From IMG/VR virus record IMGVR_UViG_3300050151_000071, positions 1-64,000 of that record: DNA of 64,000 nucleotides. One strand, 5' to 3'. The notes under the pieces were generated by a model. The model did not search any database. It had not been told where the DNA came from and saw only the letters and a program-made list of their open reading frames with translations. This DNA comes from a virus (Duplodnaviria > Caudoviricetes). This document shows, piece by piece, positions 19,251 to 22,077 of the stretch. Numbering within the stretch: position 1 is the first letter of the stretch; each line of letters starts with the position of its first letter. A program made the position numbers and the translations under genes.

Positions 19251-19279
19251 AGTATATCGTCATTTAAGACGATAGTCAA
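19251..19279 (-). promoter_or_regulatory. early promoter for the HD gene
   Basis: TTGACT-N17-TATACT. Confidence 0.7.
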
Positions 19280-19833
19280 CGGGCTAACACTTCTTTAAAG
19301 ATAGGAAGCATCATATCTTCTGGTAAGGATGTTCTCTTCACGAAGAAGTCAATGTTCTTCAAATAAGAACACATAGTTCCATCCTCTAAATGAGAATTCC
19401 TATACACCAAATCCTCAACATCAACCAAGTCTTGGTGAGCTTTAATTCTCAAAGGTACCGAATGTCTATCGGTTTGCAAAATGCGTTGAGCAATGGCAAC
19501 AGCGTGACCCTCAACGATATCAGTGTCTAGCACCACTACATTTGGAGCTAGCAAAGGTACATCGGGCGAGATGTTGATTCGCCGAGATACAACGTCTCCT
19601 CGAGTGTTGAATACTCTGGAAACTTGCATATACGGGATGTTAAACTTTTCAGCAAGGTGTTTATCAATGCTAACAGGGACTCCACCAACATAGTTGAAGT
19701 CTTTAAGAGTTAGATTGGTGTGATCAACTTCTACAGCTACCAGTTCGGTTAGCATATTGATCAGGTTGACTATTCGCTTTTGTAGCGGTACGAGTTCAGG
19801 GGTATAACACCGAACGAGGATTTCTGTTTTCAT
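19276..19833 (-). CDS. phosphoribosyltransferase-like protein
   Basis: VVVLDTDIVEGHAV resembles the PRPP-binding loop; start reassigned to MKTEIL. Confidence 0.55.
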   Translation of the reverse strand: MKTEILVRCYTPELVPLQKRIVNLINMLTELVAVEVDHTNLTLKDFNYVGGVPVSIDKHLAEKFNIPYMQVSRVFNTRGDVVSRRINISPDVPLLAPNVVVLDTDIVEGHAVAIAQRILQTDRHSVPLRIKAHQDLVDVEDLVYRNSHLEDGTMCSYLKNIDFFVKRTSLPEDMMLPIFKEVLAR

Positions 19834-20476
19834 TTCGTATTTCCGTAGAAGAAATATTAACATTCCCAGGTAGGAATATTATATTTGGGTTGCTGCTCAA
19901 GAAATGATACCGATTATAGGTGGGCGTTTGATCCCTACCTGATACGATACACTTCCCGTGGTCTCGGAAACTCAAAGCAAAGTTTGCTCGGTCCCCGCCA
20001 CACACAAAGTACGGAGTGTGGCCTCTGTTACTTAGCTCTGCGTATAGCCTGGTGAAGTTTCGAGAACATCCATCAGGCATTTTATTTTCATCCACAACCA
20101 TATATTCCAGGTTGGGGATTTCTTTCAGTTGTTTTTGGAGCTGTGAACCTTGGTATAAAGTCAGAGCATCACAAACTCCCTTACTTTCTCTGTAAGAGTT
20201 ATGATCAGCATGAATTATAACAAGAATTTCATCTGAAGTCAACAGTCGAATATATTTCGCTGCATTCATGATTGCTGCTAGATGACCTTCATGAAACGGA
20301 TAGAAAGCTCCAGAATACTGAAGAACAATCAAGTTGGGATGATAGTAGGGTAGAGGGAAATGCTCAGTATATGTGCTGATGAATGGCTTATCTTCATCGA
20401 AGTATCCAGCAATACGAGCGTATTCTTCTCCATAACGATCAACAATGCGCTTATACCATGGATCAGTTATAGCCAT
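19796..20476 (-). CDS. HIGH-family nucleotidyltransferase (NMNAT/cytidylyltransferase-like)
   Basis: YSGAFYPFHEGHL, GGDR and ISSTEIR motifs. Confidence 0.8.
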   Translation of the reverse strand: MAITDPWYKRIVDRYGEEYARIAGYFDEDKPFISTYTEHFPLPYYHPNLIVLQYSGAFYPFHEGHLAAIMNAAKYIRLLTSDEILVIIHADHNSYRESKGVCDALTLYQGSQLQKQLKEIPNLEYMVVDENKMPDGCSRNFTRLYAELSNRGHTPYFVCGGDRANFALSFRDHGKCIVSGRDQTPTYNRYHFLSSNPNIIFLPGNVNISSTEIRNENRNPRSVLYP

Positions 20477-21287
20477 AAGCTATATCTCCTCTGATAATAT
20501 AACGGTGTTGTTTACCAAAATATTCTTCAACCTGGTGACATTTCCAATGAGGAAAGATCAACAGAGCTCCACCATATGGTTGAACACGACTAGCAATTTC
20601 ATCTCTACGGGCCATATAAGTCCAATCCTTCAGGTGACCTTCTGGTCTATCCTGAGGGTGAACATATCCCGTTTGAGTGCGATATTCACCTTTCCAGCCA
20701 GACCACTCATCATGAACGAATTGGAACGATCCACCATCATATGGGCGTATGGTGTTGAGAAACAGCACCCAAGAATATAAGGTAATGTATCGTTCTTTTT
20801 CGTTGTGGAAAGGAGCATCATAATGTGGTGTATGTTGACCGCCTCTGGAATAGCGCATAAAGCGCATCCACGGAGTAGATCCTATCAGGTGATAATTCCG
20901 GTTGCAGTCGAATGGGGTATCGATGTGAATTCCACCACGACCAGTGCCCCAATGTAGAGTTCGGCCATCACCACGAAGAACGCCAGGAACGAGACCGTCA
21001 AACGCTGGGTTTAGTTTTCTCGCTAACTCAGGTGCCCAAGCGTTAGTTCTGAAAGAACCAGGCTTGGATGCAGCATCAGCGTAACCATCAACACCAACAG
21101 CATGTTTTTCTTGTTTTTCGAACTCGGTGATGAGGTGTTTGCAGTCTTCATCACGAAGAATAACAGATGGACTCCATGCACCTATCATACCTTTTTCAAC
21201 TTCAAGGACATTTTGGCTAGGTATGTTGGGATTCCACAGAGGCTGCTTGGATCCTTCAGGACCTGCATAGATATCAACGTTATACAT
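20463..21287 (-). CDS. 2OG-Fe(II) dioxygenase (prolyl-4-hydroxylase-like)
   Basis: RFMRY..GGQHTPHYD, WVLFLN, LLIFPH..CHQV and RYIIRGD; start reassigned to MYNVD. Confidence 0.85.
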   Translation of the reverse strand: MYNVDIYAGPEGSKQPLWNPNIPSQNVLEVEKGMIGAWSPSVILRDEDCKHLITEFEKQEKHAVGVDGYADAASKPGSFRTNAWAPELARKLNPAFDGLVPGVLRGDGRTLHWGTGRGGIHIDTPFDCNRNYHLIGSTPWMRFMRYSRGGQHTPHYDAPFHNEKERYITLYSWVLFLNTIRPYDGGSFQFVHDEWSGWKGEYRTQTGYVHPQDRPEGHLKDWTYMARRDEIASRVQPYGGALLIFPHWKCHQVEEYFGKQHRYIIRGDIAYGYN

Positions 21288-22077
21288 TGGCGGCCTCAAG
21301 AATCTTATCGTAGGATTTCTGACGGAATTGTTCCAGCTTATCACTGATGTGGAAACCAGGAAACGGGAGCTTATACTTGAAAGCGTTCCGACGAATGTTG
21401 TCTTTCACCTTTTCAGGGTTGTCGCAAGCTCTGAAAGCCATTTCAACTGCACCAACTGTGCTACCATATTCAGCATGACGACCAACTTGTTCGATCTGAG
21501 CGTAGGTGGCTCCAATCATTTCATAGTCGTTCGTATGAACTGTGACTAGATCACCAGACGGTACAGCATCGATGATGCTCTGTGGAATGTTGAGATCTTT
21601 AGCTAAGCTGTACACTTCAGATTTGTACAGATGGCTGATGGGATAGAAGTCTTGAGCACCATCCGAGGCTTTACCCCAGAATCCCAAGAACGCAGCTTCA
21701 CTGAAGTTAGCTGTTCCGACTACTATCGGTCGTTGATTGTTACAGTTGAGTTCAGCTGACACACCATAAAACGCTGCATTTCTTAGTATCGGTAGTGCAG
21801 CTTCATAGCCTGGACCAGGAGGAAATGGGTTATCGATGTTGACGTGAATATGGCCAATATCGAACGCTTTAGCAAATGTGAAGGCTCCTTCATCTCCACC
21901 ATAAGGAGAAGAGAATGTTTGACCACCCTGATCAACACTTACAATCATTACAGGAATCTCGGCGGTACGTAGTAAGGCTGCTGTAACAGCAGAATCAATT
22001 CCACCAGAGAATCCAACTACAGCCACGTTGAGATTGCGGTCTTGAAACCACTTCGCACATTCTTCAACAAGATCCAT
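21280..22077 (-). CDS. nadE: NH3-dependent NAD+ synthetase
   Basis: VVGFSGGIDSAV, VVGTANFSE, GFWGKASDG, PISHLYKSEVY.LA and AVPSGDL; AAGGAG RBS before MDLVEE. Confidence 0.9.
   Translation of the reverse strand: MDLVEECAKWFQDRNLNVAVVGFSGGIDSAVTAALLRTAEIPVMIVSVDQGGQTFSSPYGGDEGAFTFAKAFDIGHIHVNIDNPFPPGPGYEAALPILRNAAFYGVSAELNCNNQRPIVVGTANFSEAAFLGFWGKASDGAQDFYPISHLYKSEVYSLAKDLNIPQSIIDAVPSGDLVTVHTNDYEMIGATYAQIEQVGRHAEYGSTVGAVEMAFRACDNPEKVKDNIRRNAFKYKLPFPGFHISDKLEQFRQKSYDKILEAANV

Follow-up and report, generated by a model that had tools for sequence, protein, structure and literature searches.

A conserved phage module pairing a variant NadE with an oxidative enzyme: a candidate pathway to an NAD-type dinucleotide

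The window, i.e. the whole stretch of DNA analyzed here, is the first 64 kb (positions 1 to 64,000) of the 75.9-kb IMG/VR virus record IMGVR_UViG_3300050151_000071, which is judged 42% complete. Its source is a large tailed phage, with a Dda-like helicase, 13 tRNA genes and numerous small early-type genes. Four co-directional open reading frames (ORFs) on the minus strand occupy positions 19276–22077 and are termed the module. They encode a NadE-like protein, a 2-oxoglutarate (2OG)-Fe(II) oxygenase, a nucleotidyltransferase (NT) and ORF4, an orphan with a weak resemblance to phosphoribosyltransferases (PRTs). The features of the locus are as follows.

21280–22077, minus strand: NadE-like PP-loop amidotransferase, 265 amino acids (aa); PF02540, TIGR00552
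20463–21287, minus strand: 2OG-Fe(II) oxygenase, 274 aa; PF13640
19796–20476, minus strand: HIGH-superfamily nucleotidyltransferase NT (NadD/NMNAT-like), 226 aa; PF01467, TIGR00482
19276–19833, minus strand: ORF4, divergent PRT-like protein, 185 aa; predicted fold and homology to fused domains
22078–22176, no strand assigned: intergenic region of 99 nucleotides (nt) between the module and a divergent 655-aa gene; proposed promoter and an AAGGAG ribosome-binding site ahead of the NadE start

Read from the sequence, the NadE and oxygenase genes overlap by 8 nt, the oxygenase and NT genes by 14 nt and the NT and ORF4 genes by 38 nt. The chosen starts of all four genes match the N-termini of homologues. 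An initial sequence-only reading had placed four overlapping genes at 19276–22077, and ORF reading together with family models shows both its coordinates and its gene calls to be right.

All four genes are found together in 10 loci, the window and nine others (L004–L008, L011–L013 and L014). These nine are five IMG/VR contigs of 134–517 kb, three ENA metagenome contigs (L011–L013) and one contig of a metagenome-assembled genome (MAG); in one of the five IMG/VR loci NadE sits just beyond the stretch initially fetched. The gene order is either NadE-2OG-NT-ORF4 or ORF4-NadE-2OG-NT. An all-against-all comparison of the window with L004–L008 shows no further gene common to all six. The grouping of the four genes is far beyond chance. 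That they form one functional unit, as proposed from the window alone, is borne out by the neighborhood comparison, with all four present in 10 loci and with pairwise fusions elsewhere.

The first type of fusion joins NT to the ORF4-like domain. The module is present in three phages in culture, namely Xanthomonas phages X1 and BUDD and Variovorax phage V45v66. In these a single protein of 371–381 aa consists of an NT and an ORF4-like domain, with the oxygenase and NadE genes directly after the fusion gene. The X1 accessions are WEM34357 for the fusion, WEM34358 for the oxygenase and WEM34359 for NadE. For the N-terminal half of the X1 fusion, hhalign shows homology to the window NT (E 4.9e-13), and the ORF4-like domain is the C-terminal half of the X1-type fusion (profile-profile E 1.1e-7, 71 columns). 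Two X1 hypothetical proteins of 380 and 197 aa were considered as the missing PRT-like part and were rejected; it is instead the 371-aa protein that contains this domain, in its C-terminal half. In viral contigs of more distant kinship, NT-PRT fusions of 479–528 aa are encoded beside NadE and the oxygenase, and cellular-type NT-PRT fusions have 629 aa.

The second type of fusion joins NadE to the oxygenase. A search for longer oxygenase relatives gave P0065 and P0066 (581 and 583 aa), which have NadE at the N-terminal end and the oxygenase at the C-terminal end; the window oxygenase is homologous to this C-terminal domain. The NadE-2OG fusions are encoded in a three-gene operon together with a 629-aa NT-PRT fusion and a gene of the aspartate racemase family. 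The racemase-family gene (L019, 7291–8004; L021, 2113–2832) has one fusion gene on either side, and the stops and starts of neighboring genes overlap. It matches TIGR00035 with 130.7 bits vs 93.1, and its top match is the cysteate racemase CuyB, under the cutoff of that model. Judged by family membership, the presence of this gene in the operon points to an amino acid as a probable substrate.

The window NadE displays PF02540 (E 3.9e-25, 88.8 bits vs a cutoff of 21) and TIGR00552 (87.4 bits vs a cutoff of 63.65). The closest solved structures are 2e18 and 3fiu (3fiu, E 3.4e-15). When aligned with these, the window protein keeps the PP-loop FSGGIDS and the Mg/ATP-site residues, in GTANFSE, SDGAQD (with the conserved Asp) and PSGDL, and these are invariant in the family alignment. 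The substrate-site motif differs. NAD (nicotinamide adenine dinucleotide) synthetases have the canonical form G(Y/F)xTK(Y/F/W)GDG, which is absent from the window NadE; the window protein has GFWGKASDG. The consensus for the module NadE proteins is G(F/Y)xGKA(S/A)D(G/A), and the same variant is found in the NadE domain of the NadE-2OG fusion.

Eighty viral NadE-like loci from IMG/VR were sorted by the substrate-site motif, and an NT was sought within 7 kb. The loci are partly non-independent and some flanks are cut short, with the following distribution.

Canonical TK(Y/W)GDG: 64 loci; NT within 7 kb in none; oxidative partner in none
Variant GK(A)(S/A)D (GLVSDG in L041): 8 loci; NT within 7 kb in 8 of 8; oxidative partner a 2OG oxygenase in 7 and a radical S-adenosylmethionine (SAM) enzyme in 1
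No reliable motif picked by the pattern: 8 loci; NT within 7 kb in none; oxidative partner in none

The NadE motif variant thus clearly tracks the partner genes in the 80 viral loci. One divergent form is the L004 NadE (2595–3581 in IMGVR_UViG_3300047496_000204), in which the Lys that is conserved elsewhere is replaced by Leu (GFWGLVSDG) and about 60 residues are inserted.

The window oxygenase matches PF13640 (E 7.6e-8, 33.7 bits vs a cutoff of 27). Residues H155, D157, H247/H251, R262 and R266 are invariant in the family alignment, i.e. the metal and 2OG site is intact. The structural model (predicted confidence, pLDDT, 86.7) is a double-stranded beta-helix of the prolyl-hydroxylase type. 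Its fold matches PHD2, Pseudomonas P4H, OGFOD1, PiuC-like proteins and PolD at Z of about 15 over approximately 165–180 residues. PolD, an enzyme of nucleoside-antibiotic synthesis, is among the tied best structural matches; PasI, an enzyme of like function, appears in the Foldseek list only. A sequence-profile search of the PDB with the oxygenase gave nothing significant. The window oxygenase is homologous to that of phage X1 (hhalign E 8.5e-31).

In L027, a 231-kb viral contig, the position where the oxygenase normally sits is taken by a different gene, which encodes 366 aa and overlaps the NadE stop by 8 nt. The protein matches the archaeosine synthase subunit RaSEA (TIGR01210, E 4.7e-49, 167.3 bits, under the equivalog cutoff of 212.15). 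It has a Cys-rich CRVKTCTMC motif and no Pfam match at E 0.01. The possibility that it is a divergent 2OG oxygenase was discarded (hhalign probability 1.3%). A viral scan with the L027 protein returned itself alone, and a metagenome scan with the NT-PRT fusions gave two close relatives only and no more radical-SAM variants. The oxidative enzyme adjoins NadE in most loci and is near it in the rest, is fused to it in some genomes and is replaced by the radical-SAM enzyme in one contig; it is thus an obligate partner of a special NadE subfamily and not an optional extra.

NT is marginal with PF01467 in the window (22.5 bits vs 21). It displays the motifs SGAFYPFHEGH and ISSTEIR, and SGAFxPFHEGH and SSTxIR are invariant in the family alignment. 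Four of five weak matches in a profile search of the PDB are NMNAT domains (NadR 8x7f and 1lw7; archaeal 1f9a and 1m8f), with E-values of 0.03–0.8. The fused NT relative of L019 scores better with the NadD model (E 7.5e-13), yet is also under the cutoff.

ORF4 has no Pfam, PHROG or NCBIfam match. A HMMER search of 1.84 billion proteins gave 38 representative relatives of 84–236 aa, none of them fused, and 185,579 prokaryote species genomes contain one relative, on a MAG contig with the whole module. By this distribution the ORF4 family appears to be almost phage-only. A tblastn search of ORF4 against 50,697 phage records gave no match; the kinship with the X1-type fusions showed only in profile comparison. 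A sequence-profile search of the PDB with ORF4 gave nothing significant.

The AlphaFold model of ORF4 built on the family alignment has a pLDDT of 97.3. The top Foldseek rows listed for it are all type I PRTases, PyrR or phosphoribosyl pyrophosphate (PRPP) synthetases, the matches being weak (E about 2e-3, TM about 0.3). A PRPP loop was defined as four hydrophobic residues and two acidic residues, then xxTGxT. The ORF4 family has a strand-loop-helix, IIDTDxVxGxT, which resembles this loop; the window sequence is VVLDTDIVEGHA. The fused domains homologous to ORF4 carry canonical PRPP loops, LLDDDIASGST, FDDDVATGQT and FDDDVATGGT, and such loops occur in the viral NT-PRT fusions of 527–528 aa and in the cellular-type fusions of 629 aa. 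It is these textbook loops that best support the designation of ORF4, which by sequence and predicted structure may weakly be called a derived phosphoribosyltransferase-like protein. The sequence-only reading had termed ORF4 PRTase-like; this stands as far as a weak PRT-like fold and a PRPP-loop-like motif go, but no PRTase sequence model matches the protein.

The genomic surroundings connect the module with NAD metabolism. Three related jumbo-phage contigs (L006–L008) have NADAR, NMNAT-Nudix and Nampt genes directly upstream of the module. Phages X1 and BUDD, whose lineage is unrelated to these, have NMNAT-Nudix and Nampt within 5 kb downstream. The suspected tie to NAD metabolism is therefore supported, since the module adjoins Nampt and NMNAT-Nudix, a pair of the NARP2 type (NARP1–3 being phage routes that rebuild NAD+), in two separate lineages. 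In L028, a 184-kb viral contig, an ADP-ribosylglycohydrolase gene (3096–4058; PF03747, E 1.9e-65) lies between the oxygenase and the NT-PRT fusion. Nampt is encoded by all three complete module-bearing IMG/VR genomes, as well as by X1 and BUDD. The complete genome of V45v66 has the module, and neither a Nampt nor a Nudix gene was found in it; thus the module is able to stand alone and is not a mere accessory of the salvage pair. PF04095, which together with PF18127 marks Nampt, has no match in the 75.9-kb record of the window, which is 42% complete.

Taken together, it is an even call in our judgment that the module is one conserved phage pathway for an NAD-type pyridine dinucleotide, i.e. NAD or a close relative. 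The NT-PRT fusion suggests two consecutive steps, from base and PRPP to mononucleotide to dinucleotide, and the presence of NadE suggests that the dinucleotide product bears a carboxylate, like nicotinate mononucleotide (NaMN) and nicotinate adenine dinucleotide (NaAD). The PRT-like protein would couple PRPP to a pyridine base with a carboxylate, nicotinate being the likeliest, and the NadD-like NT would adenylylate the mononucleotide to give the deamido dinucleotide. The variant NadE would then adenylate the carboxylate and, with its oxidative partner, convert it to the carboxamide, yielding NAD+. A deamidated route from PRTase to adenylyltransferase to NadE had been put forward from the window alone. 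The gene identities, the coherence of the unit and the NAD link favor it, but it is not new in itself, since gut jumbo phages have annotated clusters of pncB, nadD and nadE (PMC11662467).

The most speculative step concerns the nitrogen. NadE may ligate the amine of an amino acid, and not free ammonia, to the activated carboxylate. The 2OG oxygenase, or the RaSEA-like radical-SAM enzyme in its place, would then attack the carbon adjoining the amide nitrogen, by hydroxylation or by abstraction of hydrogen. The adduct would collapse to the primary amide, so that the carbon skeleton is removed, the nitrogen stays and the amino acid is the nitrogen donor. The carbon-nitrogen bond would thus be cut on the amino acid side, by the Fe(II)/2OG oxygenase with oxygen and by the RaSEA-like enzyme without it, and the amidation may take place on NaAD or NaMN. 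Three observations lead to this model, i.e. the pairing or fusion with NadE in the manner of a glutaminase, the replacement by a RaSEA homologue, and the racemase-family gene in one operon variant. Aspartate is known as the nucleophile of a further PP-loop enzyme, argininosuccinate synthetase. Cellular NadE pairs or fuses with a nitrogen-supplying glutaminase subunit (PMC3376133). ArcS, which works without use of ammonium, Asn or Gln, makes a preQ0-lysine adduct, and RaSEA then strips off the lysine skeleton (PMC11298593). We put forward only tentatively, as a proposal with less than an even chance, that the variant NadE and its oxidative partner are a new kind of amidotransferase, and that together with a hidden type I PRTase replacing PncB they form a fourth and chemically novel phage route to NAD+ that uses no free ammonia or glutamine.

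For the phage, the expected benefit would be a self-contained NAD+ supply in the infected cell, e.g. once NADase defences of the host, or deamidation of nicotinamide, have been at work. NAD+ is central to the contest between phages and bacterial immunity, and the rebuilding routes NARP1–3 have been shown by experiment. The module would add a PRT family so far unrecognized, a subfamily of NadE whose active site is altered and an obligatory oxidative step foreign to textbook NAD pathways. If the oxidative partner does complete the amidation, this would be a novel way of transferring nitrogen in the making of a cofactor, with one version for aerobic and another for anaerobic conditions.

Several known systems are comparable to the module. 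The Preiss-Handler route (PncB, NadD, NadE; PMC11662467) has the same predicted reaction order, an amidation by the NadE family and a clustering of genes in phages. It differs in that the module is without PncB, a type II PRTase (PF04095), and has a small divergent type I-like PRT instead; in addition the module NadE subfamily has the altered substrate-site motif and the oxidative enzyme is an obligate fourth member. NARP2 (Nampt with NMNAT/Nudix, vibriophage KVP40 type; 10.1101/2024.02.11.579819) is likewise phage-encoded and proceeds from pyridine base and PRPP via the mononucleotide. However NARP2 takes nicotinamide and needs no amidation, NadE or oxygenase. NARP1 (Adps and Namat) differs as PF04095, the family of Namat (a Nampt homologue), is lacking in the 75.9-kb record, Adps itself not having been searched for; also ORF4 is a single small PRT-like domain and not a two-domain PRPS-like protein as is Adps. 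The earlier statement that NARP1 and NARP2 are without NadE or an oxygenase agrees with the preprint, where neither is mentioned (Osterman et al., 10.1101/2024.02.11.579819). NARP3 consists of PnuC and NadR (PMC13464706).

Glutamine-dependent NAD synthetase, a two-domain protein or a two-subunit complex with a nitrilase-like glutaminase (PMC3376133), resembles the module in that NadE has a second enzyme as its neighbor or fusion partner, there the supplier of the amide nitrogen. The module partner is an oxygenase or radical-SAM enzyme, not a hydrolase, and is C-terminal to NadE in the fusion. The ArcS-RaSEA archaeosine synthase (PMC11298593) is akin to the proposed chemistry, with a covalent amino acid donor whose skeleton is removed by a radical enzyme, and the L027 gene is a RaSEA homologue. 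The substrate there is however a nitrile on tRNA and not an adenylated carboxylate on a dinucleotide, and no ArcS homologue is present in the module. In the Francisella route NaMN is converted to nicotinamide mononucleotide (NMN) by NadE* (NMN synthetase, PDB 3fiu), followed by NadM (NMNAT-Nudix). The likeness here is that 3fiu is among the two closest solved relatives of the window NadE and that NadM-type genes adjoin the module in jumbo phages; together these leave room for amidation at the mononucleotide level. Francisella reportedly has a canonical PncB and no oxygenase.

A keyword search of the open-access literature gave no paper describing the four-gene module, and it is not described in two wide-ranging surveys that deal with the NAD systems of viruses and of jumbo phages. 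The module is thus a conserved and apparently undescribed variant of phage NAD-type biosynthesis. A deamidated route in phages is not new as an idea, as Preiss-Handler clusters are already published.

A number of results weigh against an NAD-type pathway, or against parts of it. We infer the module product, the pyridine base and the nitrogen donor from gene content, and none of the module genes would supply nicotinate. The window NadE falls short of the equivalog models (NF010587, 101.7 vs 255). The best NCBIfam match of NT is NadD (TIGR00482, E 1.3e-5), where 25.3 bits is far under the equivalog cutoff of 112.45. PF00156 has no match in 34 members of the ORF4 family even at E up to 10. An exhaustive structural search (VIA) found for ORF4 the same families as Foldseek at Z 6.8 (root mean square deviation, rmsd, 4.9; 132 residues aligned) and Z 6.4 (rmsd 3.7; 86 aligned), and a Z of 6.8 is in the range compatible with a mere common arrangement and is not proof of shared descent. 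The fold search with the oxygenase fails to split protein hydroxylases from small-molecule enzymes. The radical-SAM replacement occurs in a single contig, L027, and adjacency to NARP2 genes is limited to two lineages. Lastly, in the Synechococcus cyanophage S-SSM7 (NC_015287, L015, 204978–206898) a NadE-like gene is found in a sugar cluster directly before a UDP-glucose dehydrogenase. The annotated "NAD synthetase" of S-SSM7 may amidate a uronic acid instead of making NAD, and from this sugar-cluster context the NadE family would seem to amidate other carboxylates too.

Other explanations of the module have to be considered. It may make a modified pyridine dinucleotide, with the oxygenase modifying the base, its ribose or the completed dinucleotide, e.g. 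an oxidized or hydroxylated NAD analogue that resists cleavage by host NADases, acts as their inhibitor or is used by phage ADP-ribosyltransferases. This would account for an oxidative enzyme that is obligatory and in some genomes physically fused to NadE, for the altered NadE substrate-site motif and for the fact that phages with a complete Nampt/NMNAT route keep the module anyway; PolD among the tied best structural matches of the oxygenase is in keeping with it. However the known chemistry of the RaSEA family is removal of an amino acid skeleton that leaves the nitrogen, not hydroxylation, and the presence of the module in V45v66 without other NAD genes fits the supply of an essential cofactor better than that of a decoy. 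We know of no NAD analogue of the proposed kind, and consider this explanation unlikely.

The module may also be an ordinary Preiss-Handler booster, in which NadD and a NadE dependent on ammonia work with a nicotinate PRTase of non-homologous type. The oxygenase would then have an unrelated job, e.g. as a hydroxylase of a host or phage protein or as a sensor of oxygen or 2-oxoglutarate. Its fold is indeed closest to protein prolyl hydroxylases, at Z of about 15 (PHD2, the Pseudomonas P4H that acts on EF-Tu, and OGFOD1). Free ammonia is the usual donor of single-domain NadE enzymes (PMC3376133) and Preiss-Handler clusters are known from jumbo phages (PMC11662467). A regulator, however, would hardly be fused to NadE, swapped at the same position for a radical-SAM enzyme, or found to co-vary with a changed NadE active-site motif. 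This makes a simple booster decidedly unlikely.

A third view is that the oxidative partner is a generator of ammonia, which oxidizes an amino acid (e.g. aspartate to iminoaspartate, then to oxaloacetate and ammonia) for use by NadE, with no covalent adduct. NadE and its glutaminase show the same pattern of operons and fusions, and the aspartate-racemase-family gene in the operon variant is compatible with it. 2OG oxygenases that carry out oxidative deamination exist, e.g. KanJ. Yet such a reaction is costly compared with the hydrolysis of glutamine, it leaves the change in the NadE substrate site unexplained, and RaSEA acts on a covalent adduct and not on a free amino acid, so that we regard it as quite improbable.

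It is highly improbable that the pathway is not a pyridine pathway at all but builds and amidates another carboxylated base, nucleotide or nucleotide-sugar, e.g. for surface or nucleic acid modification: the S-SSM7 sugar cluster, the breadth of PF01467 (which covers sugar-phosphate as well as cofactor nucleotidyltransferases) and the distance of all four proteins from characterized relatives would allow it, but the top family matches of NT are consistently NadD, NadR or NMNAT, the module is set among Nampt, NMNAT-Nudix, NADAR and ADP-ribosylglycohydrolase genes, and the six-locus comparison shows no conserved glycosyltransferase or DNA-modification gene accompanying it.

The 99-nt region upstream of the module had been read as containing an early promoter, TTGTCG-N17-TAAGAT. 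The sequence is present at 22126–22098, but it has 8 of 12 consensus positions and falls under the scan threshold. Ten promoter-like sites were found in the module region, compared with 8.5 ± 3.1 in shuffled sequences. As such sites are no commoner than in shuffles, the proposed promoter is not counted as evidence. The strongest promoter-like site of the region is at 20242–20214 on the minus strand (TTGACT-17-TATAAT with an upstream TG, 11 of 12 positions). It is inside the NT coding sequence and upstream of ORF4, and may be a chance occurrence.

An HD-domain gene (18622–19185, minus strand; phrog_14850, E 7.7e-57) is directly downstream of the module and is preceded by a TTGACT-N17-TATACT site at 19279–19251. 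It was considered as a fifth member of the module and rejected, as no homologue is near the module in any other locus. A plus-strand ORF at 17962–18660 has weak TnsA-like endonuclease and NUMOD3 matches and also matches phrog_15427 (endonuclease). These matches suggest an inserted homing endonuclease, with the Dda-like helicase on one side and the HD-domain gene on the other. An RNA ligase gene (PF09414) is found near the module in L011 (11402–12559), L012 (10448–11623) and L013 (1–323).

A nucleotide search of the module region against the 50,697 phage records gave no match. The window has a second cytidylyltransferase-like gene at 57384–58250 on the minus strand (288 aa; PF01467, E 4.6e-7). 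It was compared with NatV and with the module NT as a possible paralogue, and is unrelated to both. None of the four module genes has a TAG stop or an in-frame TAG. Two tRNA genes with a CUA anticodon (2385–2460 and 2712–2789, minus strand) are amber suppressors, labeled tRNA-Pyl by ARAGORN, and other genes of the window phage may be read through at TAG.

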